Positions 30,272 to 54,002 are shown, numbered from the stretch's first letter. The stretch is DNA of 64,000 nt from Myxococcales bacterium (GCA_016794445.1 JAEUKC010000164.1:4944-68943); one strand, 5' to 3'. Numbers and translations: made by a program. The notes: a model not told the origin generated them from the sequence alone.

Positions 30272-33200
30272 CTAGAATCCCTTCAGATCGCCGCGCAGGT
30301 CCCACTGGTACTGGCGGTTCACGTTGAGGATGCCGACGTAGCGACGCAGCTGGGTCTGGGCCGTCACGTCCTTGACCTGCGCCGGCTTGGCCGGGTCGGT
30401 CCACTTCGGGCGCTTGGTGACGGCGTCGTACAGCGGGTAGCCCTTGCCGTCCGTCTGGACGTCGTAGGCCGCGGCGAGGATGCGGTTGGCGTGCTCGAGC
30501 ATGCGCTGACCGACGTTTCCGGCGCGCGCGAACCCATTGCTGTTCTTCGGTCCAGAAGCGGCACCGCCGAGGGCCTCGAAGGCCATGTCGCGGCGCGCAC
30601 CCCAGAGGACGCCGCTGTCGGGCTCGTAGAAGAAGACCTTCTCCGAGTCGGCGAGCGGGAGAGCCTCGGGGCCACCCTCGATCCAGGTGCGCATCGTGTG
30701 AGCGATCGCCATGCTGCCGTCGTCCTGGCCGAGCCAGAAGGTGTAGAGCAGCGTGGGGACCTGGGTGCGGAAGCCGACCAGCGGATCGAGGTAGACGGTG
30801 TTGGCGCCCGCCTCGGCCTTGTAGGTCGTCTCCCAGAGCTTCTGGTACTGCGGCTCGACCACGTAGTCGCCGGCCTTGGTGGCCTTGGTGCGGTCGATGT
30901 ACGGCGCCACGGCGTCGAGGTCGAAGGCGAACACGCCGGACATCAGGCGGTCATAGGCGACCGGCATGAAGGACCGGAAGTTGATCAGCATGTTGCGACC
31001 ATCCACGTAGGTGTCGCGCGAGTAGTAGACGTGCATGGGCGGGAACTGCGCCGCGAGGGCCGCCGATGCGAGCGGCTTCTCGAGGTAGGTGCCCGAGCGG
31101 TTGGGGTACGAGTTGTAGTTGAACGACCCGCCCTTGAAGTTGCTCACGTCGGTGTCGATGAAGCGGCCGTCGAGGACGCTGACCGTCACGGCAGGCGAGG
31201 GCTTGCCGAAGTCGGGCCAGCTGTCCGGGACCTCCCAGATCTCGTTGACGACGCCCGCCGACGCATCCTTCGGCGCGTACGGGCCGGGCTGCGGACGGAG
31301 GATGGCCTTGGAGAGCTCGGCGAAGAGCGCCGTGCCCGCGAGGACGTAGCCACGACCCCAGTCGTCGGACTGGAGAGCAGGGTTGGTGTCCGTGGTCTTG
31401 TCCGGGTACATCGCCGCGTACTGGCCGATCTTGCTACCCGCCAGCCAGCCGATGCTGTGCATGCGCGAGAAGTAACGGTCCCAGAGGCGACCCCCCATGA
31501 AGAACGGAATCCAGCCACGACGGCCGCGACGCCAGAAGTCGAGGAGGTAGCGGTACTCGTAGAGGCGCGCGACGTTCTCGGCGGCCTCGTACACGTCGGC
31601 GCCCGCGTCGAAGCGGAGGCCGTGCGGGTAGCTGGCGTACTCGTCGGTGCCGAACCGGTACGGCCAGCGGATGCGGCCGTCCTTGGTCTTCCAGGCGAGC
31701 GCGTCGAGGTCACCCTCCACGTTGCCCGTGACCATCTCGCTCATGTGCGCGTGGTCCTTCTTCGGCGGCTGGCAGACCACGCCGTCGATGGCGGCGTACT
31801 GCTCGGCCGTCGACTTGTCCTTGGCCGGCACGCAGCGCGAGGCGTCGAACAGGAGCTTCTCTTCCTGGAGCTTGCGCGCCAGGGTGGTGTAGTGCGTGGG
31901 CTGGAACTTCGCCCCGCCGCCGACCTTGGCGTCGGTGCGCTTGACCCACCACTGCTCGGACAGGTGCCCGCGCGGCATGGTCTCGCCCGGGAAGGCGTGC
32001 AGACCCGCGAGATCCGGACCGACCTTGCTGCCTGCCTGGAACGTCTCGACCGTGCCACCGTAGATGAACTTCATGGCGGCCTTGTCATAAGACCCGAGAC
32101 CCATGAGGTCGGTGTTGAAGTCGTAGCCGTAGTCCATGATCGACGAGTACGCGTACTCCTCGATCGACGCGTGGACGTTGGTCCCGGTGCCCATCTCCTC
32201 GGTCGTCTCCGGGTCGAGGTAGCGCGGGCCCATGCACGTGTCCGTCTTGGGATCGGTGCGCGGTCCGGTGCACTCCGCGGTCTTGGCGCCGTTGGCGGTG
32301 CGGAGCTTCCAGTAGTTCGGGTGGAAGTTCATGGAGTCCCACGAACCCTGGAAGTTGTGGCGCAGACCGACCGTGTGGCCGACCTCGTGCTCGGTCACCG
32401 CGCGGTAGATGTCGCGGCGCAGGTCGAAGAAGAGCTTCTGCGAGCGCTCCTCCGGCGAGAGGTCCTTGTACTTGTCCTTGTACTTGCGGGCGAGGCCCTC
32501 GAGGTGGGGAGCGTTGAACTCGTCCATCCCGAACATGCACATGCCGTGGGCCTCGAGGGTCTGGTGGACCTTGTTCGAGAGCTCCGCCATCGCCATCGGG
32601 TTCAAGCGGCCGCCGAACGGCGACACCGACTTGCGGACCTCGGCGGCGAGCGCCGCGTCGGCCTGGGCGATGGGCAGGTTGCCCGCGAGCCACTGATCCT
32701 GCGAGAGGATCTCGGCCTCGGACTTGCTGCCGGCGAGCTTGGTCGCCGTCGCGTTCAACCGCGCCTCGGCCTCGGCCTTGCCGCCAAAGCCCTGGTGCCC
32801 GCCCACGCCCTTCGCGCCGATCTCGGCGTTGACCGCGGCGAGCGCGTCGACGTTGGCCTTGCCCGCGACCGAGGCCCCGGCGCCGATCTTGGCGACGAGA
32901 TCCTTGGTCTGGATGCCCTTCATGCGCGAGTCGATCTCGGTGGCGCTGAGCCCGCGCGGAGCGGGACCCTCGCCACGGAGGAACTTGCCGTAGGCCTCGT
33001 ACATCGCCGGCGTGTCGCTCGGCGCGTACTTGCCGAGGCCACCCGCGATGTGCGCGCCCGTCGAGAACTCCTCGACGCTGATGTCACCGATGGCGATGCG
33101 CGCGAGGTCGCGGGCCATGGTGGCGTAGGAGTCGAGCGAGGCTCCGTAGATGTACGCGGTCGCCTGGACGACCTCGCCGGTCAGCGGGTCCGCGCCGTCG

Positions 33201-34654
33201 GGGCCGTAGCCGAGAGGCGCGGCCGACAGCGGCTGATCGACCCAGCCGATGAGGTTGTAGCGGAGGTCGCCCTCACGAGCGATGGTGCCCTCCTTGCCGC
33301 ACGAGGGGTGCTCACCGGCCTTCACCGGGTTGTGGCAGAGGACGAGCGCCGGGCCGTTGTTGGCCTTCGGGGTCTCGCCGTCGAAGAACTGCGCGCGGCA
33401 GCCAGCGGCGTCGCCGCCGAAGCGACGGCACTCCACCTCGCGGGACACGGCGATGGCGTTCACCATGGCCTCGTTCCACTGGTCGATGAGCTCCTGGTTG
33501 GCGTCCCACAGGTCGGCCGGCATGCTGGTCGACACGTGGTACGGGATGCCGCGAACCGCGCGATCCTTGAGCGGGATGGTGCAGAGGCCGCTCTTCTTGC
33601 CGGTGTTCTCGCCCGCGTACATGTCGCAGACGGAGCCCTGCACGCTGCCGCAGACGCCGTCGCCCTTGACCTTGTCGCCGTCCTCGCCGCAAGCGCGCTC
33701 GTCGTGGCTCTTGGTCCAGAGGTTGTGACGCGCGACGAGGCGGTGCCACTTCGCGTCCGTCACGCCGTACTGCCGCGAGAAGCCGTAGCGATCGCGGTTG
33801 AACGTGCCGAACATCGAGAACTTCGCGCTGTCCGTCTCCATCGCCTCGTAGTCGCGCTGCCCGACCTTCATGAAGGACGTGCGGACGGCGACCTCTTGGT
33901 CGTTGCAGTCGGTGACGACGCTGCCCGAGTAGAAGTTGGAGATGATGCAGGCGGGGAGCCACGAGACGCCGTCGAACGAAGGCGCCTTGGCGATCCACTT
34001 GCTGGTCAGGTCGAAGTAGCCGTTCGCCGTGTCGTAGACCGGGGCGTTCAGGCTGGTCGGATCGGTGACGTAGTAGTTGACGTTCTGCCAGGTGATGTCA
34101 CCGAAGATCTCGCCGAACCAGAGGCCGGCGAAATCGGGGTCACTGACGAGGTTGCGCGACCAGTCCACGCGCATGTAGTCGCGCTGGTACCACGGCCGGT
34201 CGATCGGGTTCTCGACGATGATGTTCTGCTCTTCGCCCGTGGTCGGGTTGTAGGCCCGCTGGATGTCGAAGTGCGACTGGATGCGGAACATGGCGACGAT
34301 GACGCCGTTGTTCTTCGACGGGTCCGCGCCCTTGCCGTCCGAGCCGCTCACGAGCTCGTACGAGCGGCGAGCGACGAGGAAGTTCTCCTGGATGTCCCAA
34401 CGCACGCGCCGGAGCTCGTCCTGATAGCCGGGGAAGGCAAAGCTGTTGCTCTTGCCGACCTCGGTGATCGTCATGCGCATGTACCACTCGGTCGGGTTCG
34501 CCGGGTCAGGCCCGAGCAGATCCGCCTTCTTCATGTAGTTCGGCTGCACCTGGCTGATGGGCTCGCGCTCTTCCGCGCAACCACCGCCGCTCGCCGCCAC
34601 AGAGAGCCCCAGGAATGCTGCCATTCCCAGCCGGCTCAACCATCCCTTACGCAT
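30272..34654 (-). CDS. Giant metzincin-type zinc metalloprotease lipoprotein, paralog A (DUF4953/DUF5117-like core)
   Basis: ATG 34654 lies 6 nt after AGGAGG. Lipobox LSVAASGGGC. The motif HEVGHTVGLRHNF (HExxHxxGxxH) maps to nt 32357-32389. 1460 aa. Confidence 0.8.
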   Translation of the reverse strand: MRKGWLSRLGMAAFLGLSVAASGGGCAEEREPISQVQPNYMKKADLLGPDPANPTEWYMRMTITEVGKSNSFAFPGYQDELRRVRWDIQENFLVARRSYELVSGSDGKGADPSKNNGVIVAMFRIQSHFDIQRAYNPTTGEEQNIIVENPIDRPWYQRDYMRVDWSRNLVSDPDFAGLWFGEIFGDITWQNVNYYVTDPTSLNAPVYDTANGYFDLTSKWIAKAPSFDGVSWLPACIISNFYSGSVVTDCNDQEVAVRTSFMKVGQRDYEAMETDSAKFSMFGTFNRDRYGFSRQYGVTDAKWHRLVARHNLWTKSHDERACGEDGDKVKGDGVCGSVQGSVCDMYAGENTGKKSGLCTIPLKDRAVRGIPYHVSTSMPADLWDANQELIDQWNEAMVNAIAVSREVECRRFGGDAAGCRAQFFDGETPKANNGPALVLCHNPVKAGEHPSCGKEGTIAREGDLRYNLIGWVDQPLSAAPLGYGPDGADPLTGEVVQATAYIYGASLDSYATMARDLARIAIGDISVEEFSTGAHIAGGLGKYAPSDTPAMYEAYGKFLRGEGPAPRGLSATEIDSRMKGIQTKDLVAKIGAGASVAGKANVDALAAVNAEIGAKGVGGHQGFGGKAEAEARLNATATKLAGSKSEAEILSQDQWLAGNLPIAQADAALAAEVRKSVSPFGGRLNPMAMAELSNKVHQTLEAHGMCMFGMDEFNAPHLEGLARKYKDKYKDLSPEERSQKLFFDLRRDIYRAVTEHEVGHTVGLRHNFQGSWDSMNFHPNYWKLRTANGAKTAECTGPRTDPKTDTCMGPRYLDPETTEEMGTGTNVHASIEEYAYSSIMDYGYDFNTDLMGLGSYDKAAMKFIYGGTVETFQAGSKVGPDLAGLHAFPGETMPRGHLSEQWWVKRTDAKVGGGAKFQPTHYTTLARKLQEEKLLFDASRCVPAKDKSTAEQYAAIDGVVCQPPKKDHAHMSEMVTGNVEGDLDALAWKTKDGRIRWPYRFGTDEYASYPHGLRFDAGADVYEAAENVARLYEYRYLLDFWRRGRRGWIPFFMGGRLWDRYFSRMHSIGWLAGSKIGQYAAMYPDKTTDTNPALQSDDWGRGYVLAGTALFAELSKAILRPQPGPYAPKDASAGVVNEIWEVPDSWPDFGKPSPAVTVSVLDGRFIDTDVSNFKGGSFNYNSYPNRSGTYLEKPLASAALAAQFPPMHVYYSRDTYVDGRNMLINFRSFMPVAYDRLMSGVFAFDLDAVAPYIDRTKATKAGDYVVEPQYQKLWETTYKAEAGANTVYLDPLVGFRTQVPTLLYTFWLGQDDGSMAIAHTMRTWIEGGPEALPLADSEKVFFYEPDSGVLWGARRDMAFEALGGAASGPKNSNGFARAGNVGQRMLEHANRILAAAYDVQTDGKGYPLYDAVTKRPKWTDPAKPAQVKDVTAQTQLRRYVGILNVNRQYQWDLRGDLKGF

Positions 34655-34737
34655 CACAGCCTCCTATTCACTCAGAAGAATTCTTGGGGGGAGCCGGGAG
34701 GGGAGCGCTCGCGCGCTGCACCCTCCCAGCAGGGCGA

Positions 34738-37700
34738 TCAGCAGTCGCGGTCGTACGAGTACCCGCACGGGCCGAAGCCCAGGTAGTAGAGCGAGACGCG
34801 GACCTGGTTGAGGAAGCCGACGTAGAGGCGGAGCTTCTCCGCCGCGGCAGCGTCCTTCACGTCAGCCTTGGTGATCGCCACGGTCGTCCCCTTCTTGAGC
34901 GGACGGTGCGTGATCGGGTCGTACTTGGCCTTGAGCTGGGTCGAGCCGACCTTCACCGGCTCGCTCTCCACGTCGTAGGCCGCGAGCAGGAGCTCGTTGG
35001 CGTGCTCCATCATGCGGGCGCCGATGCCCTGGTCGACGATCTTGCCGGCGAGGGTCTCCTGGCCGAACGACTTGGCGTTCCACTCGATGCCCTCGGAGGG
35101 GTCGAAGAACACCACGCGCTCGCCGTCGGGGATCGTGATGGCCTCGGAGCTACCGGGGACCCAGATGCGGGTGCGGTTGATGAGGTCCATGCTGGAGTCG
35201 ATCGGCTGGTAGAGCATCATCAGGACGACCGCCGGGACCTTCTGCCGGAAGCCGAGCATCGGGTCGACGACCTTGCTGCCGGCCGGGCGGGTGATCTTGG
35301 TGACGTCGGCGTCCCAGAGCTTGAGGGTCGACAGCGGCGTCATGCCGAAGGCGTCCTTGGTGCTGGCGGGATCGATGTACGGACCGACGGTGTCCCAGTC
35401 GTCTGCCATGACGCCGGCGACCAGGCGGTCGAAGGCCTGCGGCAGCGCGCTGCGGAAGCTGAACATCACGTTGCGGCCGTCGAGATAGGTCTCGCGGGCG
35501 ACGGTGCTGAGCTTGGGACGGGCGTCGGTGAGGGCGATGGCGGCGAACGGCTTCTCGAGGAAGCTGCCGGCGCGGAACGCGTACGCACGGTAGTCGTACT
35601 GGCGCTTGAGATCGAAGCGGTGGTCGACGTAGCGCGCGTCACCGACGCCGAGCCAGAAGCTCGGGGTCACGCCGCCGATCGGCTTGGTGGGGTCGGCCTC
35701 TTCGGGCATGCCCGGAGCGACCGAGTAGAGGTCGTAGAGCGAGCCCGGCTGCTTGTTGAGCGTGTAGGCGCCCGGCTGCGGCCGGAGGAACGCCGACTGC
35801 ATCGCGTCGAACAGCTGGGTCAGCGAGAGGCTGCCGCCACGCGCCGAGTACTTCGCCGGATCCTCCTCGAAGCCCGAGCGGACGACGTCGGAGAGGGCGT
35901 TCCACTGGAGCGACTGCACGCGGTCGAAGAAGCGACCGTACATGCGGCGACCCGCGTTGGCGACGTTACGCTCGCGCCTTCCCATGCGGAAGAAGTAGTC
36001 GAGGTACATCATCCCGTAGCGATCCAGGATGTCCTGGGTCAGCTCGTAGAAGTCGGCGCCCGAGTCGTACACCATGCTGTGGACGTAGGCCGTGTTGCCG
36101 TCGCTGACCTTGTAGGGCCAGCGGCGACGGGTCAGGCCGTCCGAGCCCTTCCACGGACCGGCCGGGTTGGTCTCTGCATACTGGACCTTCCACTCGTCGG
36201 TCGCGGGGAAGCCCTGCGCGTTCGCCGAGACCATGTCGCGCACGAGCGCGTGGTCGCGGTGGGGCACCTGGCACACGAGCCCGAGGGCGCCGATGCCACG
36301 GTCCTTCTCCTCGGCGGTCTGCGGGCGGCAGCGCTTCGGATCGAACAGGTTCAGGCGGATGCCCATCTGCGTGTAGTGGGTGTCGGCGCCACCGATGTAC
36401 CAGGCGTCGGCGTTCATCAGGCCGAGGGCGCCCGCGAACGACTTGGCCGTGGCAGCGGAGTTCTTGACGAGGTTCTTGTCCTCGTCGTCGAAGAGCTCGA
36501 CCAGGCCACCGTAGATGTACTTCGCCGCCATCTTGTCGAACGGCGCGAGCTGCGCCGAGTAGATGGTGTCGAACTTGTAGTCCATCACGGAGTCGACCGC
36601 GTACGACTCGATCGAGTGGTGCTCAGCGCCCTTCTTGGTGCCGAGCTCTTCCTCGGTCAGCGGGTCGATGTAGCGCGGCCCGATGCAGGTGTCGGGCGAG
36701 CCCGGCGCGCGCGGGGTGGTCGGGTCGCACTGCTTGAACGACTCGGTCTTTCCCTGGGCGCGGTAGGTCCAGTACTCGGTGTTGTAGTTGATGGCGTCGT
36801 AGGAGCCAGCGAACTGGTGCTCCATCGACATGAGGTGACCCATCTCGTGGAGGAGCGTGAACTCGTACATCGGCTCGAGCAGCTCCTGGTAGATGAGCTT
36901 GCCGCGGAGCTTCTTGTCGATGGTCTGGCCCTCGACACCGGCTGCCTTGGCGATGCGACCGCTGGCCGCTGCGCCGTCCGGGTACTTGGACTTGTAGAAC
37001 GCCGCCGCGCCAGCGAGGTAGTTGAAGCGCAGCATCTCGTCCGGCCCGAGCGAGCAGGTGTGCTTCGCCTTGGCGCGGAAGAACTCCGTCTCGCCCTCGA
37101 TGGCGATGGAGGTGGGGTTCATCGCGCGGAGCGGCGAGACCGCGTCGAGGACGGGCTTGGTGGCCGCCTTGGTCGGGTCGATGCCCACGCTGGAGACCCA
37201 GAGGTCGTTGACGATGGACTGCTCGAGGCCCGCCTTCTTGGCCGCCTCGAGGCGCTGCGCGATCTTGGTGGTGTAGGCGGTCGTGTCGGCGAAGCCCGGC
37301 GTCCCGAGGGTCGCCTGCTTGGACACGTGCTGGTTCCACTTGATGAAGCGCTCGGCGTCGCTGGTCGTGCCCGCGAGCGCCTTGGCGGCGCCCGTCTTGG
37401 CCTGGAGACCCGCGATGTCCACGGCCTTGAGGCGCGCGTCCATCTCGGCCTTGGTCATGTGCTTCGGCGACATGACCTTGGTGAGCTCGCCCTGGAAGGC
37501 GTTCAGCGCCGGGTCGATGATCGGGTCGGTCTTGAAGTCGGCGGGCGCGGAGCCGTACCAGTCGACCGTCACGCCGGAGACGTACTCCGACGGCGTGAGG
37601 TCGCCGTTGACCAGCATGATCTGGTCGCGCATGTACGCCGAGTAGTCCTCGACGGACGCGCCGAAGATGTTGACGGTGGAGCCGATGTTCTCACCGGTGG

Positions 37701-39255
37701 TCGGGTCGCCCGACCAGACGATGACGCCGAGCGGCTTGTTGAAGGACGGGTTGTTCCACCACGCGATCATGTGCTCGCGGATGTCGCCCTTGCGGACCTT
37801 CTTGCCTTCCTGGCCGCAGGACGGGTGATCGCCCTTGAGCACCGGGTTGTGGCACATGACCACGACCTCGTCGCCCGTCGGCTCGTCCTCTTCCGCGGGG
37901 TTGATGGCGGCGTTCTTGAAGTACTTGCCGTGGCAGGCTTCACGCTCGCCGCCGGCGCGACGGCACTCGGCCTCGCGAGCGTAGGAGACCGCGCCCTTGA
38001 GGGCCTTGTTCCACTGGCCGAGCGCGTGCTCGGTGGTGGGCCAGAGGTACTCGGGCAGCTCGGGATCGAGGAAGAAGTCGATCTGGCGGACCTTGCGGTC
38101 GGTGTACGGGATCGTGCACCGCTTCGCGTTCATGTCACAGACGGAGTTGAGGCCGCCCGACGCCTCGGCGCAGGTGGCGTCGCCGTCCTTCTTGACGTTG
38201 TTCCCGCCGCAGATCGTCGCGGTGTGGGACTTGTCCCAGATGTTGTACTTCTGCTGGTAGATGTGCCAGGTGTCGTCGACGATGCCGTAGTTGCGATCGT
38301 AGCCGCTGCGGTCGAGCGTGAGGTTGGCCTGGATGTTCGCCATCCAGCTGGTGATCTCACCCGCCTCGTAGTCGCGACCCGCGTCCACCTTCCAGAACGA
38401 CGTCCGGAGCGTGACCTCCTGGTCGGAGCACTCGATGGAGCCTTCCGAGTAGGTGCTCGGGTAGAGGTTCATGTTCTGCAGGAGGCAGTACGGAACCTGG
38501 TAGCCGTAGTAGTCGAACGTCTCGGGGCCCGCGATCCAGCGGGAGGTGACGTCGAAGTAACCGCCGCCGATCTCGGCGAAGTTCGAGTAGTCGGCCGGCT
38601 TCTTGGGGTCGGCCTCGAAGAAGGCCACGGGCTTCCAGCGGAGGTCGCCGCCGAAGGTCTCCCACCAGAAGATCTGGTTCGGGTCACCGACCAGGTTCTG
38701 CGACCAGTCGACGCGGAAGTACTCGCGGGCGTACCAGGGCACGTCGGAGGCGTTCTCCTCGCGGACGTTGGAGACCTCGCCCGTGATCGGGTTGTAGGCC
38801 TGCTGGATGTTGAAGTGGCTGCGGATCGGGTAGACGGCGACGATGTAGCCCTCGATGGCCTTGTGCTTGGCCGCCGCGTCGCCGTTCGCCTTCACGCCGC
38901 CCTTGCCGTCGGTACCCTTGATGTACTCGTAGGCGTTGCGGACGATCAGGAAGTTCTCCGTGATCTCGAACCGCACGCGGCGGGTCAGGTCCTGGAGACC
39001 GTCGCTGAACCACGGGTTCGTGCGCTGGACCTGAGTGATCAGGCTGCGCATGTAGAACTCCGGAGCGTTCTCCGGGTGCTGGAGGTCACCGACGAAGTCG
39101 GACTTCTTGAGGGCGAGCGGCTGGACGCGATCGATCTCGTCCCGCTGCCCAGCGCACCCCGTCGTCGTACCGGCCGACCCGCTCACCGCGAGTGCGGCCA
39201 GGGCCGCCACCCCAAGGCTCCTCAATCCGAGCCTCTTGCGCCATCCGCTACGCAT
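34738..39255 (-). CDS. Giant metzincin-type zinc metalloprotease lipoprotein, paralog B
   Basis: ATG 39255 lies 6 nt after AGGAGG. MRSGWRKRLGLRSLGVAALAALAVSGSAGTTTGC carries a lipobox. HEMGHLMSMEH maps to nt 36817-36849. The protein is colinear with paralog A. 1505 aa. Confidence 0.8.
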   Translation of the reverse strand: MRSGWRKRLGLRSLGVAALAALAVSGSAGTTTGCAGQRDEIDRVQPLALKKSDFVGDLQHPENAPEFYMRSLITQVQRTNPWFSDGLQDLTRRVRFEITENFLIVRNAYEYIKGTDGKGGVKANGDAAAKHKAIEGYIVAVYPIRSHFNIQQAYNPITGEVSNVREENASDVPWYAREYFRVDWSQNLVGDPNQIFWWETFGGDLRWKPVAFFEADPKKPADYSNFAEIGGGYFDVTSRWIAGPETFDYYGYQVPYCLLQNMNLYPSTYSEGSIECSDQEVTLRTSFWKVDAGRDYEAGEITSWMANIQANLTLDRSGYDRNYGIVDDTWHIYQQKYNIWDKSHTATICGGNNVKKDGDATCAEASGGLNSVCDMNAKRCTIPYTDRKVRQIDFFLDPELPEYLWPTTEHALGQWNKALKGAVSYAREAECRRAGGEREACHGKYFKNAAINPAEEDEPTGDEVVVMCHNPVLKGDHPSCGQEGKKVRKGDIREHMIAWWNNPSFNKPLGVIVWSGDPTTGENIGSTVNIFGASVEDYSAYMRDQIMLVNGDLTPSEYVSGVTVDWYGSAPADFKTDPIIDPALNAFQGELTKVMSPKHMTKAEMDARLKAVDIAGLQAKTGAAKALAGTTSDAERFIKWNQHVSKQATLGTPGFADTTAYTTKIAQRLEAAKKAGLEQSIVNDLWVSSVGIDPTKAATKPVLDAVSPLRAMNPTSIAIEGETEFFRAKAKHTCSLGPDEMLRFNYLAGAAAFYKSKYPDGAAASGRIAKAAGVEGQTIDKKLRGKLIYQELLEPMYEFTLLHEMGHLMSMEHQFAGSYDAINYNTEYWTYRAQGKTESFKQCDPTTPRAPGSPDTCIGPRYIDPLTEEELGTKKGAEHHSIESYAVDSVMDYKFDTIYSAQLAPFDKMAAKYIYGGLVELFDDEDKNLVKNSAATAKSFAGALGLMNADAWYIGGADTHYTQMGIRLNLFDPKRCRPQTAEEKDRGIGALGLVCQVPHRDHALVRDMVSANAQGFPATDEWKVQYAETNPAGPWKGSDGLTRRRWPYKVSDGNTAYVHSMVYDSGADFYELTQDILDRYGMMYLDYFFRMGRRERNVANAGRRMYGRFFDRVQSLQWNALSDVVRSGFEEDPAKYSARGGSLSLTQLFDAMQSAFLRPQPGAYTLNKQPGSLYDLYSVAPGMPEEADPTKPIGGVTPSFWLGVGDARYVDHRFDLKRQYDYRAYAFRAGSFLEKPFAAIALTDARPKLSTVARETYLDGRNVMFSFRSALPQAFDRLVAGVMADDWDTVGPYIDPASTKDAFGMTPLSTLKLWDADVTKITRPAGSKVVDPMLGFRQKVPAVVLMMLYQPIDSSMDLINRTRIWVPGSSEAITIPDGERVVFFDPSEGIEWNAKSFGQETLAGKIVDQGIGARMMEHANELLLAAYDVESEPVKVGSTQLKAKYDPITHRPLKKGTTVAITKADVKDAAAAEKLRLYVGFLNQVRVSLYYLGFGPCGYSYDRDC

Positions 39256-39464
39256 CCAACGCCTCCTATCCGACTTGCCGCGTGAAGTGACACGGACGCA
39301 CGCCCGTGTCGGGGAGGCGCGTCGTGCAACTGTCACGCCAGGAAGTCAACGGCCCACATCCGGCGGCTTGCGGGCTCGGAGACCCTGGTGAGCCAGGGCT
39401 CGTTAGGCGACTGACGGGGCGGAGGAGGGGGTCGGCGATCGGGTCGCGCACGGTCGGACGGACC

Positions 39465-45775: not shown

Positions 45776-46096
45776 ATGTCCACACCGCCCCCCGACAAGA
45801 AGCGTGGTCGCAAGCTCCTCGTCGCCGCGGTCGGCGTGGCCACGGTGTCGTACGTGATCGCGTGCAGCAGCACGACGTCCGGCAACCTCATGCCGCCCGA
45901 AGACACCGGCAAGGTCGACGGTGGCGGCGAGGCAGGGGACACGGGCTTCGACGTGAGCTCGGGCAACCTCGTCGCGCCGGACACGGGCACGCCGGACACG
46001 AGTACGCCCGACGGGGATGCGGCGGCCGACACGGGCGGCTTCGACGTGAGCTCGGGCAACCTGGTCCCGCCCGACACGGGCAGCGACGGCGACTGA
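45776..46096 (+). CDS. Small Asp/Gly-rich lipoprotein with an internal repeat
   Basis: KKRGRKLLVAAVGVATVSYVIAC carries a lipobox. DTG(G)FDVSSGNLV[AP]PDTG is repeated at nt 45938-45988 and 46028-46081. Confidence 0.55.
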   Translation: MSTPPPDKKRGRKLLVAAVGVATVSYVIACSSTTSGNLMPPEDTGKVDGGGEAGDTGFDVSSGNLVAPDTGTPDTSTPDGDAAADTGGFDVSSGNLVPPDTGSDGD

Positions 46097-46254: not shown

Positions 46255-46632
46255 TCACTCAATTGCGAGGGCGATTGTGGCATCCCACCCATGTTCAATC
46301 GTAGCTCTGATTGGTCCTGAGTAGTTCACTGAAGTTCGAATCGCACGTCCTCCACCACGCGGCACCTCGACTACGACAATCAACTTCCCGCCGTCCACTC
46401 CGTAGCAGCTCACATTGATCCACGGAAAGCCGGCCGCCAAGACCTCCTCGAAGCGATTGCTGTAGTCTTCCGGATCACGACAATCGTCCCGTCGCACCCG
46501 CAGCCGACCACGTTCATCGAGCCCGACGCCGGGACCAATCTCAAGCAGTCTGACCTCACGCACCGGCGGGGTCTGACCAGCATCCTCCAGGAACACAAAC
46601 AGACCTTCTAGCGCTCGCTTCAAAGCACTCAT
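46255..46632 (-). CDS. Candidate immunity protein for the upstream Rhs/Tc toxin tip
   Basis: 125-aa ORF with no signal peptide. Its ATG overlaps the toxin stop (CCATGAGT, an ATGA overlap). A hand count of one 60-nt line (46261-46320) gives 52% GC. I recognise no family. Confidence 0.55.
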   Translation of the reverse strand: MSALKRALEGLFVFLEDAGQTPPVREVRLLEIGPGVGLDERGRLRVRRDDCRDPEDYSNRFEEVLAAGFPWINVSCYGVDGGKLIVVVEVPRGGGRAIRTSVNYSGPIRATIEHGWDATIALAIE

Positions 46633-49600
46633 GGTTTCACCATGAACTGGTTGAAGAGCTGAATGTGTTCCGGCGTCCGAAGCGTAATCTCGGTGGATCG
46701 GAGCCCGTACGGATAGAATCCAGCGTACGGCCGTTCCAACGGGGCTAGCACGGACTGAAACTGGGATACGGGAACTCTCGATTCAATAATCATTCCGAGT
46801 CCGGGAACGGCATCAGGATGACTTGTCAGGGCGTTTTGAGCGGCAGCAAGATCTCTGGACACAAACGTCGGAGCCCGTGCTGCATCGAGCCCATTCTCCA
46901 GAATGGTGCCGCCATTCCTTATGCTCCCGTGGAATACAGAGACTGTCTCCTCAGCAGCTCCCACTGGACCCAGCAGACCTGCTCCCCCGATTGACATCCC
47001 TATCATCAGCTTTTCCGCCGTCCCGGGAGCCATGTGGTTTGGGGTCGATGAGAAGGTCCACAACGCGACTCCGCTGCCGATGATTCGGGCCGCCCACCCA
47101 GTCCGAAGGATTGCGAAGGTCCCCCGCGCAAAGCCGCCGGCAGGCAACAGCGACAACGCAAGGAAGGCGACCTCTTCCATCTGCGCATTCTTGCCTTCGA
47201 TGCGTGCGAGATCCTCCTCGGTGTAGCTCTTCCCAATGCCCATCTCGAGCTCGAGCCAGTTGTTCACCCCATACGCCGCCAGCGGGTTTCCAGACGACTG
47301 GTCGTCGGTCTTTGGAGCTGGTGGGACAGGCGCGCCAGGGGCCTCTTGGTATTTGTAGGTGCCGTTACCCTGGGGTACGAACCCGCTCGATCCTGCTTTG
47401 CCACCACCACTACCAGTGCCACCGACGACACCGCCGGCCGACCCCGTACCACCCGGCACCCCTCCGGGGCTCCCCCCAGAGCTACCTGCACCGCCACTAC
47501 TGGACGCCCCGCCGCCGCTCCCACTTCCCGAACCAGCGCCGCCCTTGCCTGGCCCACCCGAGCCACCATTCCCTGGCCCGCTGCCCGAGGGGATGGTGAC
47601 TTCGACACAACCTGGTCCACCACCCGGTGGGTATGGCCCTTCCGGCATTGGATCGCCGTCAGGACAGGTCTTGGGCCCTCCGGAGAAGCCGGTCGGGTCA
47701 ACGAGGTTCGTCGGCGAGCTGCGAACGTATGCGTAGCGGTTGAGCCCGTCGCCTCGTCCGAAGGCCTCGAGGAACGGATCTGGGGTGAGGAATCGTTGCA
47801 GCATCGGATCATAGATCCGGCCCTGCATGTTCACGAGGCCGAGGTCGTCGTCCTCTTCGTGTCCCGTGTAGCCATGGCTCAGACTCCACGGGCCGGTGGG
47901 GCTGGCCTCGGGAACATCCGGATCGAACGCTCGCCCGAATGGATCGAAGTGCCGCCGACTTCCAGGTACTTCAACCCCGCTCGCGTCGGTGATCACCTGC
48001 GGGGAACCGAGGCGGTCGGCGTGCACGTACTTGACCGTCTTCGCGCCTGCACCGTCGATCGTCACCGTCGCGATCTTCCCGATTGGACCCAAGATGTGCA
48101 GCGCGTGCTCCACGCCGGATCCGTTCGAGCGACGCTCGTAGAGACCGCCGACGTAGATGGTCTGCTGGTCACCACGCTGCTTTGCGTGGCGACCACCCAT
48201 GGCGTCGTACTGGAAGGCGACCTCGCCAGCGCTAGCCGCCTGGATACGCTTGGGTAGGTGCAGACCGTTGTACTCGACCGAGCGTCCAGGAGCCTCCAGC
48301 TGCTCGCCCGCAGCCGAGTATTTGAACGTCTCGGGACCACCTGGAGTGAGCGACCTGACGGCATGAGGCAGGATTCGGCCGACCCCCGATGGATAGACGT
48401 CGTAGTCGGTCGCGGTACCGTTCAGCTTCCGCTGGCGAAGGTTGCCGACGTCGTCATACGCGTAGGAAGCATCGACCGGCTTGTCGAGGCGAGGTGAGGT
48501 CCACGTCTCGAGCCTCCCCATCGCGTCGTAGCCGAATCGCTCGACACGGCCGGAGTCCGTGAGTTGCTTCAGTTCTGCCGCGGCGTTGTAGGAGTACTGG
48601 AGCGCCTGCAAGGTCGCCGCGCCGCTGAGGGAATCGATCCCTGTCAGCATGCCGCTGGAGTCGTAGGCGTAGCTCGTGCTGATGCCATTGCCGTAGTGGG
48701 TGGCGGTCGGTTGGCCGTCCGCGGCCTCTGCCTGCTGCTTCCAGAAGACAGTTCCGCCCGCAACGTCCTCTTTGACCTGCCAGAGAGCCCCGTTCGTCGT
48801 GGCGTAGTCGAACCGCACGGCGAACCCGCTCGCAGGGTAGTGAAGGCGTTCCAGTCGGCCGAAAGCGTCGTAGCCTGCACCCAACGTGAACGCCCCGGCT
48901 CCCGAGGAGACCTTCATCTCGACCGGTTGGCCGATCACTGAGAAGACGGACTCCGTCTTCACGCCATCGGGACTCTGTGTCGTCGCGAGCTGCCCCAAGC
49001 CGTGGTCAGCTGTGTCCCAGCCGAAACAGGTGGCTCCGTCCTTACCGTTGAGGGTCGCCCACGCACGGCCGAGGGCATCGCGCTCGTAGCGAGTCTCGAC
49101 TTTGTTGCCGTCGACACTGGCGATGACCTCGCCGAAAGCGTTGTACTGGTATTCCCGCACACCGAGGTCGGGATCCTGATGGCGTCGAATCCGCAGCCAA
49201 GTGGTTGGCTCGTAGTCCCAGCGCGACTCGTTGCCTCCGGCATCTACCGCCGCTGAGAGCTTGCCGAATGGACCGTAGACGAAGCTCCCAGCGACCTCGT
49301 GCGGTGAGGAAGAGTCGACGGTACGTACACCGCGATGACCGCTGCGAACGACACGCCCCGCCAGATCGTACTGCTGGAAGGCGACACGGGGGGCGCCATC
49401 CACCGTGACTTCGCTCTCGTGAAGAAGCCGGTCATACCGGTGAACGACCGTTCGGCCGACCGGATCGACGGCCGACATCACGCGTCCGAGGTTGTCGCGG
49501 AAGACATCTGTTACCCCGACGCTGCCCGGAGGGCTGTCCGTGAACCACGGACGTGTGATCCTCTTAGGGAGGCCGAGGAAGCGTTGATCGTACTCGTAGT

Positions 49601-52600
49601 CCTGGTGAGCGATTCGGCCGGACTCGAACCCAGCACGCTCGGTCCACAACGGTCTGTCGAGGCCATCGTAGGCAACGACCTCGCGACCACCGCCACCATG
49701 CTCAGCCACCGTGGTCAGGCGCCCGACGGGATCGTAGAGGTGACTCACTACAACGTTGCCGCCGTCGGGGCGCTGTACCCTTCGAACGCGACCAAAACCA
49801 TCGTATTGGTGCGTCGAGGTCTCGCCGTTGGGGCCGACGAGGCGCGCAAGCACGCCAAGGCTCGGATGGTGGTCCAGCTGGACGGAGTGTCCGACGGCAT
49901 TGGTCACGCGGCGTATGTAGATGGCCTCGAGCGGCTCGTATTCGTAGGCCTCCCATCGAGTGGAGACGCCGTCGGCGGTCTGGCTCGTGGCTGTGAGCTG
50001 TCCCTCCGCGTCGTAGAACATGCGGGTCTCGAGCCGTAGCGCGGGACCATCGTCGGGATTGTCGACGCGTCGGACCGGGCGCCCATCAAGGTCGTTCTCG
50101 AATGCCACAACCTGGCGCGCGGCGAAGCCATCGACCACAGAGGTCACGGTGGAGCTCCGGAGCATCCCAAGAAGCCACCGCGTCGTGTCGTTGTCGTACG
50201 TGAAGCGACTGGTCAGCTTCTCGGTACCCACCGCGTGCGTCGCAGACTCGATGTTGGCAAACGAGCCGTACTCGTACGTCGTGCTCGCTGATTGGAACTC
50301 GATACCGGTTTGCAATACACGCGAGCGAAGCTCGCGCTGCCTGACTGCGAACGGCTGCTTGAGCGTCGGATCGCCGTCGACAATCGACCATCGAGCATGT
50401 TGCTCGATCCTAACTGCCGCTGGTGTCGTGAGCGCGCCGAACCCGAGGTCGCAGAGATTGGGTGACGGCGAGTCGAGCCGCTCGATCTCCGTCTCTTCAT
50501 CCGTCATCAAGCCAGCGAAAGGGTACGTCGTGCCAATCCGCGTCGCCGCGGATGGATCGCCGCTCGTGCCATACGTGCGTATGGTGCGGGCGCTCGAGAC
50601 CGGGTCGCAGGTCAGGACCTTGGAGAAGCCGAGCCAGCCGCGCCCGAGCGAGTCGGTCTGCGGATGCTGATACTTGAAGTAGTGCCTCTTCGTGGCCGAG
50701 CCGGCGAAGGCGCCATCGTTCCCGATCGTCTGACTCGTGACCACGGCAAGCGCGCGTGTGGCGCAGATCGTGGGGAACTTGCAAGACCCGTCGCGAACGA
50801 TCTCGGTGTGCGCGCCATACGTGAACGTCACGCTGGCCCCGCGCGGCGAGGAGACCCGCACCAGCCGATCGCCGTCGTGACCGCGGAGGTTGTGATAGAG
50901 GAACAGCCCGTCCGATCCTTCGAACTGGATGATGTCGCTGTTCCCATCGCCATCGATGTCCAGGACCTGGGCATAGGCATAGCCGGAGGCGAAGAAGCGA
51001 CGTGCCTGCGGAATGCGCGTGATGGTCGGGTGACCCGTCACGAGCACACCCGTGGTTGCGAGCTGGAGATTGCGCCCGGCCCCACGGTAGACGATGGGGC
51101 CAACTCGCGCCTGATCGGGTCCAATCGGATCCGTGGGACCGGTGAGATAGAAGGGACCGTTGCGTCCCAGCAGCACGAGGTCCTGCTTGCCGTCATGGTC
51201 CCAGTCGACGACGCGGATGCCCGGATCCGTCACGAACTGATCGTGGGCTGGGAAGGCATGACCGTGGAGCTGCACCGTCGGATCGAGCGGCGACCCTGGC
51301 GGGAGCGGGGACACGATGTCCGTGGGAGTCACCTCGAAAGCCGAGAAGTCAGTTCCCTTGTTGATCGCCACCGAGGGGATGCCGCCACGGTTCGAGATCT
51401 TCACGGCATCGGCCAGGCCGTCCCCGTTGACGTCGACGAACATGAGCCTATCGCCCTGGCCTGGGTCGATGCCCTCCTGGAAGAAAGCTCCGTTGGTCGA
51501 GACGGGCAGCGAGGTTCGGTGGAACCCAGCGACGCTCGTTGCTCTGTAGCGTCCCGAGCCGGGACCGGGATGCAGAAGCGACGTCGTGATGCCGTCCGTC
51601 CGGACGGTGTACGCGGGAAACGGCTGGCGGTACCCCACGTCTCGGATGAATTGGTAGGACGCCCGTGCCGTGGAGAACGTCGTGATCGGCCCAAGGGCGC
51701 CTTCAGCGAGCGCTCGCGAGATCCAGAAAGTGGGGCCATCCGCCACCACACCGGCGCCCGAGACGACGGTCTTTCCCGCGGGTCGAATGGGCCGAAGGAG
51801 GCCGTTGCCGTCCAGATCGGCGAAGTAGAGGGGTGCCGGCCAGGTCTCACAGCGAGTGCCGAACGCGGTTCCTGCGTCCGCGTTCAACATCGAGCACGTG
51901 TCGTAGGGACCGAGGAACAGCGCGTCGTCGAGAGGACCGTCTGCTTTGAACGTCCCGCTCGACTGGCGTCGGAAGAGCTGCCAACCGGGAGCCTTGCCCG
52001 CTTCAGATGCCGTCATCTTCGCGCCCGAGATGGGCACGAACGCCTCGGGGATCCCGTCTGCATCGATGTCCACCAAGCGGACCACTGGGATGGTGGACCC
52101 CGCGTCGGAGTACTGCGCAGGAAGACCGGTCGGCTGCTCGGGGCCGAAGGTCGGGCGACCTTCCGCTCCTGTTTGCGCAAGTCGGTAGAACCACTCGAGG
52201 CGGTCCACGTCTCCGTCACAGACCGGGCACGGTCGCGTCGGGTCATCACAGGCCACTGTAGGGCCAGCCGAGCACCGTTCCTTGGCGACCGAACGTCGAT
52301 AGAAGACGTCGTCTCGCCCGTCGCCGTTGACGTCGGCCACGAGCATCGCGTAGTTGGTCGCGAAGGCGAACTTCCGCAGTCCCGGGTCGTCCGGCGCCCA
52401 GTGCAGCTGAGCCGGATCGAAGGGCAGGGAGATACGTTCGAAATGGTCGGGAACGTTGATTCCCCAATCGAATTTCAATGGCTCCGAACAGACGCCCCCA
52501 CCGTCGCAGGAGCGAACTTCAGTGAGTCGGCTGGGGCTGGACGACACCTTGTCTGGTGGTGGTGGCGTGGCCGTCTCCGGCGAGTAGCGAAGCCGATACT

Positions 52601-54002
52601 CGCGCACGAGCCCGATGGCCGTCGGCGACGGGCCGAAGACGCGAATGCTCGCGAGCCGGTCCGGCACGATCAGACCGACGCCGCTCATGTAGCGTGGCTG
52701 CCGGTCGGCACGCGACTGGTAGACGAATTCAACACGCCGCTGCGGCGTGGGGTGCTGCGGACTGCTGGTGTAGGTGATGTCGTGTGGACGCAGCTCGAAT
52801 GCAGCGTTGTCTGCGGTGCCGGTCTCGTAACTGTACGCCATCGTGTTGCCGGCGCGGTCGCTCACTTGCGACAGAGCCCAGGCAACGCGAACTGTCGTGG
52901 GGTAGGAATCCGTCGGCGGCAACTCGTCGGTGTCGGCGTAGTCAATCTGGACGCGCTTGGCGTTCAGCACAGCGGCAAAGGTGCGACTCAATCCGGTTCG
53001 ACCCGTCGCGACGAAGGAGGACCAGTTGGCGCCTGCGCCCACTTCGTCGATGTAGCCGACCACTCGGGTGTACGGATCGTGCTCGGGCCGAAACTCGACG
53101 GACCTGCTGCCTCGGTTGACCTCGACCAGGTAGTCGCCGTCGAGACAGAGTCGATCGCTTGCAGAGAACTGGATCGCTGCGGCATTCCCGTCCGAAGCAA
53201 CGCTCTTGGCGCACCGCCGGACCTCGGAGAACCCACCCAACGACCACCCGATGCCGACGAGGCCGTTGCCTGCGCGGCTGTGGTACTTCAGGGCCAGCGC
53301 TGGCTCGATGCCCGCTCGTCCAGGAGGAGTCCACAGCGGGATCGTGTACGTCGAGGCGCCGTCCGGAGTGACCGCGGGGCTGCCGGACAGCAAGGTGCCG
53401 GGCGTCTGGTAGAAGCCTTGCCCCTCTCCACCTTCGACCCAGATGCCCTCCTCCGTCGGGACGATTGTCGTCGCGAAGTCGACGTCCGGATTCGGGCGCC
53501 AAGACACGAGGACCGACGTTCCCGGAATCCGCAGCGCTCCCCCTTCGACGAGACATGTCGCCGAGGCTCCGAGGCCCGCCCAACCAACACCGCCACCAAG
53601 GGCCCACGCGAGCGCTTGATTCACGAAGACACCGCGATGGGGTCCGACCGCGAACGAGACGGGCTGGCCTTGCCCGTCCGGTCCAGGGAACATCCGGTTG
53701 GTCACACCGGCTGGAATGACGACCCGTGAAGCGGACGAGTTGTTGTAGCCCCAGACCACGTAGGTCTTCCCGTCGGGCGCCTTGTAGACGCAGTCCACGG
53801 TCGGGGTGATCGCGGCCGCGTTCGATCCGGGCGCTTCGCAGCCGATGGCCGGGCCTGTGCCTGGGGCCCCGCCACATCCCTGCACCGCAATCAGGATGAC
53901 GATGAGGAGCAGCAGCATGCGCAGAACGAGACGTTCTCGCGCTGGCCGTCGCGGAACGGCCTCTACCAGCTGCACTGACAAGCATGCGCGCCACAGCATC
54001 AT
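46629..54002 (-). CDS. TcB-TcC-like (BC fusion) Rhs cocoon toxin with a lipoprotein signal peptide
   Basis: ATG 54002 lies ~5 nt after GGAGAG. The R-rich n-region plus LLLLIVILIAVQGC forms a lipobox. SpvB-type motif IPLWTPPGRAGIEPALALKYHSRAGNGLVGIGWSLGG. Six FG-GAP/VCBS-like loops (DVNGDGRDDV, DIDADGIPE, DLDGNGL, DVNGDGLADA, DWDHDGKQDL, DIDGDGNSDI). About 10 YD repeats (YDGFGRV, YDPVGRL, YDLAGRV, YNAFGEV, YDAFGRL, YDAMGRL, YDDVGNL). Rhs core GRIYDPMLQRFLTPDP...NRYAYVRSSPTNLVDPTGF, then a variable tail. Confidence 0.85.
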   Translation of the reverse strand: MMLWRACLSVQLVEAVPRRPARERLVLRMLLLLIVILIAVQGCGGAPGTGPAIGCEAPGSNAAAITPTVDCVYKAPDGKTYVVWGYNNSSASRVVIPAGVTNRMFPGPDGQGQPVSFAVGPHRGVFVNQALAWALGGGVGWAGLGASATCLVEGGALRIPGTSVLVSWRPNPDVDFATTIVPTEEGIWVEGGEGQGFYQTPGTLLSGSPAVTPDGASTYTIPLWTPPGRAGIEPALALKYHSRAGNGLVGIGWSLGGFSEVRRCAKSVASDGNAAAIQFSASDRLCLDGDYLVEVNRGSRSVEFRPEHDPYTRVVGYIDEVGAGANWSSFVATGRTGLSRTFAAVLNAKRVQIDYADTDELPPTDSYPTTVRVAWALSQVSDRAGNTMAYSYETGTADNAAFELRPHDITYTSSPQHPTPQRRVEFVYQSRADRQPRYMSGVGLIVPDRLASIRVFGPSPTAIGLVREYRLRYSPETATPPPPDKVSSSPSRLTEVRSCDGGGVCSEPLKFDWGINVPDHFERISLPFDPAQLHWAPDDPGLRKFAFATNYAMLVADVNGDGRDDVFYRRSVAKERCSAGPTVACDDPTRPCPVCDGDVDRLEWFYRLAQTGAEGRPTFGPEQPTGLPAQYSDAGSTIPVVRLVDIDADGIPEAFVPISGAKMTASEAGKAPGWQLFRRQSSGTFKADGPLDDALFLGPYDTCSMLNADAGTAFGTRCETWPAPLYFADLDGNGLLRPIRPAGKTVVSGAGVVADGPTFWISRALAEGALGPITTFSTARASYQFIRDVGYRQPFPAYTVRTDGITTSLLHPGPGSGRYRATSVAGFHRTSLPVSTNGAFFQEGIDPGQGDRLMFVDVNGDGLADAVKISNRGGIPSVAINKGTDFSAFEVTPTDIVSPLPPGSPLDPTVQLHGHAFPAHDQFVTDPGIRVVDWDHDGKQDLVLLGRNGPFYLTGPTDPIGPDQARVGPIVYRGAGRNLQLATTGVLVTGHPTITRIPQARRFFASGYAYAQVLDIDGDGNSDIIQFEGSDGLFLYHNLRGHDGDRLVRVSSPRGASVTFTYGAHTEIVRDGSCKFPTICATRALAVVTSQTIGNDGAFAGSATKRHYFKYQHPQTDSLGRGWLGFSKVLTCDPVSSARTIRTYGTSGDPSAATRIGTTYPFAGLMTDEETEIERLDSPSPNLCDLGFGALTTPAAVRIEQHARWSIVDGDPTLKQPFAVRQRELRSRVLQTGIEFQSASTTYEYGSFANIESATHAVGTEKLTSRFTYDNDTTRWLLGMLRSSTVTSVVDGFAARQVVAFENDLDGRPVRRVDNPDDGPALRLETRMFYDAEGQLTATSQTADGVSTRWEAYEYEPLEAIYIRRVTNAVGHSVQLDHHPSLGVLARLVGPNGETSTHQYDGFGRVRRVQRPDGGNVVVSHLYDPVGRLTTVAEHGGGGREVVAYDGLDRPLWTERAGFESGRIAHQDYEYDQRFLGLPKRITRPWFTDSPPGSVGVTDVFRDNLGRVMSAVDPVGRTVVHRYDRLLHESEVTVDGAPRVAFQQYDLAGRVVRSGHRGVRTVDSSSPHEVAGSFVYGPFGKLSAAVDAGGNESRWDYEPTTWLRIRRHQDPDLGVREYQYNAFGEVIASVDGNKVETRYERDALGRAWATLNGKDGATCFGWDTADHGLGQLATTQSPDGVKTESVFSVIGQPVEMKVSSGAGAFTLGAGYDAFGRLERLHYPASGFAVRFDYATTNGALWQVKEDVAGGTVFWKQQAEAADGQPTATHYGNGISTSYAYDSSGMLTGIDSLSGAATLQALQYSYNAAAELKQLTDSGRVERFGYDAMGRLETWTSPRLDKPVDASYAYDDVGNLRQRKLNGTATDYDVYPSGVGRILPHAVRSLTPGGPETFKYSAAGEQLEAPGRSVEYNGLHLPKRIQAASAGEVAFQYDAMGGRHAKQRGDQQTIYVGGLYERRSNGSGVEHALHILGPIGKIATVTIDGAGAKTVKYVHADRLGSPQVITDASGVEVPGSRRHFDPFGRAFDPDVPEASPTGPWSLSHGYTGHEEDDDLGLVNMQGRIYDPMLQRFLTPDPFLEAFGRGDGLNRYAYVRSSPTNLVDPTGFSGGPKTCPDGDPMPEGPYPPGGGPGCVEVTIPSGSGPGNGGSGGPGKGGAGSGSGSGGGASSSGGAGSSGGSPGGVPGGTGSAGGVVGGTGSGGGKAGSSGFVPQGNGTYKYQEAPGAPVPPAPKTDDQSSGNPLAAYGVNNWLELEMGIGKSYTEEDLARIEGKNAQMEEVAFLALSLLPAGGFARGTFAILRTGWAARIIGSGVALWTFSSTPNHMAPGTAEKLMIGMSIGGAGLLGPVGAAEETVSVFHGSIRNGGTILENGLDAARAPTFVSRDLAAAQNALTSHPDAVPGLGMIIESRVPVSQFQSVLAPLERPYAGFYPYGLRSTEITLRTPEHIQLFNQFMVKP
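47685..47864 (-). other. Rhs/TcC core end (aspartyl autoprotease motif), the predicted boundary between shell and cargo
   Basis: aa 2047-2106: GHEEDDDLGLVNMQGRIYDPMLQRFLTPDPFLEAFGRGDGLNRYAYVRSSPTNLVDPTGF. I verified this codon by codon against nt 47685-47760. Confidence 0.75.

Follow-up and report, generated by a model that had tools for sequence, protein, structure and literature searches.

What is a protein built like the B and C components of a Tc toxin doing behind a lipoprotein signal, with a small gene coupled to its stop codon and no TcA gene beside it? The question is posed by a locus in a metagenome-assembled genome (MAG) of a Myxococcales bacterium (GCA_016794445.1), which we analysed in a single stretch of 64,000 nucleotides (JAEUKC010000164.1:4944-68943; hereafter the window). 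Two genes on the minus strand make up the locus, the first encoding a single chain of 2457 residues with SpvB, beta-propeller and RHS parts and the second a protein of 125 residues. Comparison of these sequences with others leads us to regard the locus as probably a horizontally acquired toxin-immunity pair, in which the large protein is an SpvB/beta-propeller/RHS polymorphic toxin of the TcdB/TcaC type used against other bacteria. An original prediction had described a lipid-anchored TcB-TcC fusion that joins a Tc-type shell to the logic of interbacterial conflict, and had implied that this was new. The domain searches support the single-chain TcB-TcC-type protein with a lipobox signal, and the interbacterial polymorphic-toxin logic is supported as well. 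The interpretation is right in kind and not new, because the TcdB/TcaC class was catalogued in 2012 and such fusions, like the bacterial teneurin-like proteins (TLPs), are known. The undescribed parts are the family of the ADP-ribosyltransferase (ART)-like tip, its immunity family and a small N-terminal module.

The shell of the protein is recognised by profile (Table 1). The SpvB domain and the propeller with six calcium (Ca) loops, both of which had been proposed, are recovered; the propeller matches FG-GAP_3 (PF13517) with E 7e-11, and its D-x-[DN]-x-[DN]-G loops start at residues 557, 645, 729, 857, 933 and 1015. The YD repeats and the Rhs-associated core are equally clear, with the NCBIfam profile Rhs_assc_core (TIGR03696) matching residues 2033-2105 at E 2.4e-18. 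The DPTGF that ends the core, as predicted, occupies residues 2102-2106 within PTNLVDPTGF (2097-2106) and fits the PxxxxDPxG autoproteolysis motif described for TcC proteins and TLPs (PMC7861908, PMC13018210). Between propeller and repeats the Pfam scan adds TcdB_toxin_midN, while its expected companion TcdB_toxin_midC is found nowhere in the toxin protein at E <= 0.1. The closest solved structures by sequence are the Rhs cocoons 7q97 and 8h8a of type VI secretion systems (T6SS), TccC2 and TccC3, YenC2, YenB and SpvB.

Beyond DPTGF lies a tail of 351 residues (~34 kDa, isoelectric point (pI) 5.3), in line with the ~350 residues first proposed, which has no match in Pfam, NCBIfam or PADLOC. Its first ~245 residues resemble the tails of related fusions in composition, the sequences themselves being unrelated, and from this we infer a role as spacer and entry helper. 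Conservation in other proteins is confined to the final ~105 residues, from ETVSVFHGS to the end. Eleven metagenomic homologs share 65-74% identity with this toxin domain, which in them comes after a PT-TG pre-toxin domain or after the DPSGF or DPSGL that ends an Rhs core. An exhaustive profile search extends the family to 138 representative clusters, its carriers ranging from short fragments to proteins of 2100-4300 residues. Among the long carriers are SpvB-type fusions (P0036, P0054, P0058, P0107, P0121, P0147 and P0159), Rhs proteins without detectable likeness to the TcB-type part, and proteins without the searched Rhs core motif. Pfam has no match over the toxin-domain region in any of 89 family members (0/89), and its only matches in these proteins, RHS, TEN_YD-shell, PT-HINT and PT-TG, all lie upstream. 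Judged by these sequences, the domain is a mobile polymorphic-toxin tip common to Rhs, PT-HINT and PT-TG scaffolds. It is C-terminal in every family protein of at least 1000 residues except P0074 (3107 residues), the lone exception among the long members, where it sits internally at residues 762-871.

The AlphaFold2 model of the toxin domain (predicted local distance difference test (pLDDT) 89, predicted template modelling score (pTM) 0.82) has the predicted fold of an ART. Among the 50 matches listed in a Foldseek search against the PDB, all are ART-fold proteins, including PARP1/2/14/16, the pertussis-like PltA and ParT; Tpt1 is the top match (E 0.0097, prob 0.96) and RhsP2 has the highest TMq, 0.55. 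Against the viral models of BFVD, Foldseek ranks a phage RNA 2'-phosphotransferase first (E 0.0018, prob 1.0) and also lists PARP and PolyVal ARTs. Conservation within the family picks out a small set of positions. H2358, part of an HGS motif that closes strand 1, is kept in 77/84 sequences, S2408 in 78/89, and an aromatic residue stands at position 2426 in all 87 of 87 (Y 71, W 14, F 2); E2438, at the start of a late strand, is Glu in 79/87 and Gln in 7 more. We take the HGS motif, with its His on strand 1, to be placed as in PARP. The catalytic Glu of RhsP2 stands at the start of strand 5 (JBC 2025 paper on RhsP2). In the alignment and the model, H2358, the aromatic residue at 2426 and E2438 fit the pattern of an H-Y-E ART and form the candidate triad. 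The domain shares its predicted fold, strand-1 His, conserved aromatic residue and late-strand Glu with ARTs of the H-Y-E clade (Tpt1/KptA, PARP, ParT, DarT) and with RhsP2, itself an ART at an Rhs tip with an immunity partner. It differs from them in its length of only ~105 residues and in having no sequence-level match to any ART family; the toxin alignment, used as a profile against PDB sequences, returned noise only. Fold and candidate residues together suggest that the tip is probably an NAD+-using ART-like toxin of an undescribed family. The likeness to Tpt1 and RhsP2 makes nucleic acid a candidate target, a reasonable guess by analogy but no more than that.

The second gene is coupled to the first as had been noted, its ATG and the TGA of the toxin gene sharing ATGA at the junction ...AAA CCA TGA GTG.... 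Its product is acidic (pI 5.3), has no signal peptide and no match in Pfam, NCBIfam or PADLOC, and counts nine homologs, of which P0013 is identical. AlphaFold2 models it with confidence (pLDDT 94), and Foldseek finds no meaningful match to this model in the PDB (template modelling (TM) score < 0.3). The evidence for its function comes from linkage. On three contigs reached via toxin homologs (L008-L010), a homolog of the partner stands directly after the toxin domain, once with a 4-nt overlap, and a metagenome scan with the toxin profile finds a same-strand partner directly downstream in 11/16 loci. Overall the partner follows the toxin domain in 14 of 19 homologous loci; in two of the other five the sequence available downstream is too short. 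ATGA-type coupling recurs in relatives. Toxin and partner also diverge together, the partner being 39-50% identical where the toxin is ~73% identical. A metagenome protein, P0012, joins in frame a truncated toxin domain and the C-terminal half of an immunity-family protein and looks, from its sequence, like a deletion or a decayed toxin-immunity pair. The small gene behaves in this respect like the immunity-like gene that had been proposed, and because its linkage to the toxin domain is conserved in 14/19 loci, the 125-residue protein very probably serves as the toxin's cognate immunity protein in the cytoplasm. Other members of the immunity family have different neighbours: the gene ahead of the homolog is a metallophosphoesterase-like fragment in L005 and encodes an unannotated, apparently helical protein in L007, and AbiEii or DUF2283 genes lie near the homologs in L005-L007.

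At its other end, the toxin carries the Sec/lipobox signal that had been described, at the level of a sequence pattern. The N-terminus, MMLWRACLSVQLVEAVPRRPARERLVLRMLLLLIVILIAVQG-C43, comprises an Arg-rich n-region, a 12-residue hydrophobic core and an AVQG-C lipobox, and the residues ahead of the cysteine, ...LLLLIVILIAVQG-C43, fit a PROSITE-type lipobox pattern written as a regular expression. In Myxococcus xanthus, lipoproteins are sorted to the outer membrane if position +2 is not Lys and position +7 is not Ala (PMC5562445). Since the mature protein would begin C43-G-G-A-P-G-T, with Gly at +2 and Thr at +7, outer-membrane sorting is predicted under this rule. The exact start of the protein is uncertain, because M1 is preceded by GGAGAG 7 nt to its 5' side, yet the public gene call (P0035) uses M29. 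Between the lipobox and SpvB lies the N-terminal module without assignment that had been pointed out; it measures ~160 residues and has no match in Pfam, NCBIfam or PADLOC. A homologous segment, covering a core of ~100 residues, is found directly ahead of SpvB in three proteins (P0022, P0107 and P0147). Two of these, P0107 (3797 residues) and P0147 (3807 residues), have a lipobox, an extension of ~1300 residues, then the module, SpvB and RHS, and end in the same toxin family. The module is thus not tied to the lipid anchor, because in both proteins the long extension comes ahead of it.

The composition of the pair sets it apart from its surroundings. GC content at third codon positions (GC3) is 0.755 in the toxin gene and 0.58 in the 125-residue gene, against ~0.94 in the flanking isc, aroA and ppk genes; the pair lies far below its neighbours and is therefore read as recently acquired, foreign DNA. 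Within the toxin gene itself GC3 also declines: it is ~0.78 over the shell and 0.62-0.66 over the tail, before reaching 0.58 in the immunity gene. From this gradient, tip and partner gene look like the latest-swapped piece, newer than the scaffold. The flanks are housekeeping genes, iscU-iscA-hscB-hscA-fdx on one side and a GFA-family gene, aroA, pheA and ppk on the other. Searches around the island found no tRNA, no integrase and no convincing flanking repeats, and a promoter and terminator search there gave no informative matches.

Table 1 Features of the toxin-immunity locus (window coordinates) and of immunity-family homologs elsewhere (coordinates of the contig named).
Feature	Position	Strand	Residues	Description
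Toxin gene	46629..54002	(-)	2457 aa	ORF and translation; single-chain SpvB / beta-propeller / RHS (TcB-TcC-type)
Immunity-like gene	46255..46632	(-)	125 aa	without signal peptide; ATGA-coupled to toxin gene
Signal peptide and lipobox	53874..54002	(-)	1-43	predicted; Cys43; AVQG-C; alternative start M29
Unassigned N-terminal module	53388..53873	(-)	44-205	conserved core ~100 aa
SpvB domain	52782..53366	(-)	213-407	PF03534, E 5e-14; matches YenB and SpvB in PDB
FG-GAP-type beta-propeller region	50913..52355	(-)	~550-1030	PF13517, PF01839; six Ca-loop motifs
TcdB_toxin_midN	50589..50972	(-)	1011-1138	PF12256, E 1.8e-6, over gathering score
RHS/YD-repeat shell	47907..50285	(-)	~1240-2032	PF05593 1e-22, TIGR01643 (YD_repeat_2x), YD motifs; PDB matches to Rhs and TccC shells
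Rhs-associated core with aspartyl autoprotease motifs	47685..47906	(-)	2033-2106	YDPMLQRF...PTNLVDPTGF; TIGR03696
Pre-toxin part of tail	46947..47684	(-)	2107-2352	Gly/Ser-rich linker, then moderately hydrophobic Ala/Gly-rich helical stretch
C-terminal toxin domain	46632..46946	(-)	2353-2457	unannotated family; predicted ART fold; candidate triad H2358 / Y2426 / E2438
Immunity-family homolog, L005	304-672			after unrelated gene, 4-nt overlap
Immunity-family homolog, L006	225-593			after unrelated gene, 4-nt overlap
Immunity-family homolog, L007	744-1217			after unrelated gene, 4-nt overlap

A class of this build has a name. Zhang, de Souza, Anantharaman, Iyer & Aravind (2012) defined the TcdB/TcaC polymorphic toxins as proteins with a signal peptide, SpvB, an integrin-like propeller and RHS, bearing many toxin tips alongside many immunity families and including delta-proteobacteria in their range (PMC3482391). 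The window protein has each of these elements: a signal (pattern-level), SpvB followed by the FG-GAP propeller, RHS with its core, a tip common to other scaffolds and a downstream partner gene conserved by linkage. It differs from the class in its lipobox, where a plain signal peptide is described, in the extra ~160-residue N-terminal module, and in tip and immunity families that are in neither Pfam nor NCBIfam. Surveys of antibacterial toxin genes, moreover, use SpvB as a standard marker of trafficking (PMC11796102). The class is known from genome comparison, and we found in the literature neither an experimental study of its delivery nor an experimental paper on SpvB-type fusions in myxobacteria.

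Relatives of the TcB-type half show how far the architecture reaches. They are distant, at no more than 36% identity, and 4/12 have lipoboxes; several are proteins of 2000-2130 residues with SpvB, FG-GAP and RHS. Three of them, read in context (L011-L013), are each followed immediately by a small gene, of 184, 195 or 119 residues, and the 195-residue product matches SMI1_KNR4, a polymorphic-toxin immunity family. Beside these three there is no TcA-like gene in the sequence covered, which extends 10 kb on the upstream side of two and 0.8-4.3 kb on the downstream side of each. A scan with a five-sequence TcB alignment over one genome per species yielded 80 loci, in Myxococcota, Gammaproteobacteria, Bacteroidota, Leptospira, Verrucomicrobiota and others, of which 44 hold a complete single-chain fusion, each with an Rhs core and a tail of 185-390 residues. 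An open reading frame (ORF) of at least 60 codons' worth of residues (>=60 aa) starts -30 to +120 nt from the fusion stop in 34/42 cases, a raw count with no chance baseline for high-GC DNA. A strict lipobox pattern is present in 7/38 fusions, including those of Pyxidicoccus fallax DSM 14698, Corallococcus terminator BB12-2 and a Polyangiaceae MAG. The P. fallax and C. terminator fusions have a Pfam architecture identical to that of the window protein; the build that had been thought uncharacterised in myxobacteria therefore recurs in cultured ones.

Could the protein instead be the B-C fusion of a canonical three-component (ABC) Tc toxin, docking on a TcA encoded elsewhere to strike eukaryotes (amoebae, nematodes, insects), with the 125-residue protein guarding against leakage? 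ART tips are common in TcC proteins, and SpvB, TcdB_midN, the propeller and the Rhs core are all TcB/TcC domains. The likeness to the BC subcomplex (TcdB2-TccC3, YenB-YenC2) extends to the RHS shell, the aspartyl autoprotease motif and a tail below 40 kDa, which agrees with the cargo limit of <40 kDa given for the cocoon, and natural B-C fusions exist, including in Burkholderia (Song et al. 2021, PMC7861908). An argument from the acidic tail (pI 5.3) against passage through TcA was dropped, as cargo pI is not critical according to the same study. The subcomplex, however, consists of two chains, whereas a single chain is encoded here with a predicted lipid anchor, which TcB does not have, and a coupled immunity-like gene. 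The canonical Tc loci examined have no immunity genes (PMC7861908), in contrast to the conserved linkage at this one, and the tip also sits on PT-TG, PT-HINT and further Rhs scaffolds of the sort that interbacterial toxins typically have. Canonical loci are 96% gamma- and beta-proteobacterial (PMC7861908), whereas the present source is a myxobacterial MAG and no gamma- or beta-proteobacterial pathogen; midC is undetected as well. As had been noted, there is no TcA-like gene in the 64-kb window, where every ORF of at least 900 residues is accounted for by BamA, a Kelch protein or two met-zincin-like lipoproteins. Nor is there one in the flanks of L011-L013 or, at the fusion loci of the genome scan, among the 7 scanned of 12 flanking ORFs of at least 900 residues. 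On balance we consider a TcA-dependent toxin against eukaryotes improbable.

Two other delivery systems would each explain part of the locus. SitA proteins are small and are not known to have an RHS shell, and the window protein is far larger. The closest solved RHS matches being T6SS cocoons (7q97, 8h8a), the protein could be a T6SS Rhs effector; yet neither the toxin protein nor the scanned ORFs of the window contain PAAR, VgrG or another T6SS domain, and a Sec/lipobox signal is incompatible with T6SS loading. Alternatively it could belong to the SitA family, myxobacterial outer-membrane lipoproteins with a downstream immunity gene; outer-membrane exchange moves outer-membrane lipoproteins efficiently (PMC5562445). 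Like SitA/SitI (PMC5562445, PMC8546572), it combines an outer-membrane sorting signal and a polymorphic C-terminal toxin with a downstream cytoplasmic immunity gene and horizontal mobility. The N-terminal module, however, is covered by no Pfam family, and the size of the protein speaks against membership. A T6SS effector or a SitA-family toxin is accordingly a slim prospect, though outer-membrane exchange may serve as a route without SitA membership.

The TLPs offer the nearest parallel in the same phylum. They occur in >20% of Myxococcota species and are predicted signal peptidase II (SPII) lipoproteins whose sealed YD shell encloses a cleaved toxin; their downstream immunity gene has been confirmed experimentally (Raoelijaona et al. 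2026, PMC13018210). Like them, the window protein is a predicted Myxococcota lipoprotein that has a YD shell bearing PxxxxDPxG and a polymorphic toxin, a class that in TLPs includes ARTs; its immunity gene likewise lies downstream, and delivery machinery is evident in neither case (PMC13018210). TLPs are nevertheless defined by FN-plug, NHL and YD-shell, whereas Pfam gives SpvB, FG-GAP and TcdB_midN here and no NHL. Their toxin domains average ~15 kDa against a tail of 351 residues, and the PDB sequence search returned no TLP chain. Because its cap is SpvB/FG-GAP and not FN-plug/NHL, the window protein is not a TLP, and we give that assignment hardly any weight. Equally far-fetched is the view of the 125-residue ORF as a chaperone, a secretion adaptor or an unrelated small gene, which draws on its lack of a known family or fold and on the homologs that follow unrelated genes, but is opposed by same-strand adjacency to the toxin domain across 47-85% toxin identity and on different scaffolds, by the joint divergence and repeated ATGA coupling of the two genes, and by a product predicted to be cytoplasmic, small and acidic.

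Several observations weigh against an acquired antibacterial toxin-immunity pair with an ART-like tip. Each fold match is weak alone (best E ~2e-3 to 1e-2, TM 0.4-0.6), and at ~105 residues the toxin domain is unusually small for an ART; yet the PDB and BFVD libraries agree on ART-fold proteins as the best matches. The search for TcA covered the 64 kb, and a TcA elsewhere in the genome is possible. The lipobox has Gln at position -2, the start codon is ambiguous between M1 and M29, and the downstream-ORF figure of the genome scan is to be read with the caveat already attached to it. Finally, the immunity homologs in L005-L007 follow unrelated genes. Orphan immunity genes are common in toxin-immunity systems, and these three are, from their sequence, probably such orphans.

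How, then, might an antibacterial polymorphic toxin of this build work? After export by Sec the protein would receive its lipid at Cys43 and move to the outer membrane, its SpvB and RHS parts forming a closed shell around the ~34-kDa tail, which would be cut after F2106. A trigger at a neighbouring cell would let the tail exit the shell, and the hydrophobic pre-toxin stretch may then aid its crossing of the target's inner membrane. Inside, the H-Y-E-type ART-like domain would use NAD+ to ADP-ribosylate a cytoplasmic target, for which nucleic acid is a candidate, while in the producer and its kin the cytoplasmic 125-residue protein would bind and block the toxin. Most likely no TcA is required for delivery, and the candidate routes, which we do not rank, are contact at the surface, vesicles and outer-membrane exchange by TraAB, the route that SitA lipoproteins take. 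A bolder proposal, which we advance as a speculation with a modest chance of being right, is that lipid-anchored single-chain BC cocoons are a self-sufficient, TcA-independent means of interbacterial delivery in myxobacteria. Here contact or outer-membrane exchange would bring the cocoon to its target, a cue from the target envelope would open the propeller gate, and the hydrophobic pre-toxin segment would take a new and minimal H-Y-E ART of ~105 residues through the inner membrane, where it would modify nucleic acid.

Other genes of the window deserve mention in their own right. Two giant ORFs, adjacent at 30272-34657 (-) and 34738-39336 (-), were considered as TcA candidates and rejected, being paralogous HExxH lipoproteins with no Tc-related match. 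They encode 1461 and 1532 residues with 34% identity and lipobox-like N-termini, have a host-like GC3 of 0.94 and no sequence relatives in the PDB, and give as sole Pfam match a weak DUF4953 in the 1461-residue protein. Next to them, at 27112-30198 (-), a Kelch-repeat protein of 1028 residues lies in a stretch of lower overall GC (~0.66). BamA is recognised by its POTRA and Omp85 domains. Convergent with the immunity gene, at 45776-46096 (+), is a gene for an acidic predicted lipoprotein of 106 residues (lipobox VIAC), in which a 46-nt direct repeat (45944-45989, 46037-46082) produces the repeated motif DTG(G)FDVSSGNLVxPDTG. The gene at 2836-3948 (+), close to the 2 kb of low GC (0.605) with which the window opens, encodes a protein with five DUF4379 treble-clef zinc-finger repeats.

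The wider interest of the locus lies in delivery. How Rhs/YD cocoons are released and delivered without TcA or a T6SS is an open question, stated as such for TLPs by their authors, who describe delivery as unexplained (PMC13018210). The culturable relatives with the same architecture, Pyxidicoccus fallax DSM 14698 and Corallococcus terminator, are tractable cases for a lipoprotein-based route. The ART-like tip in turn is one more candidate for the set of Rhs-borne ARTs, which is growing and includes several that hit RNA or translation factors.

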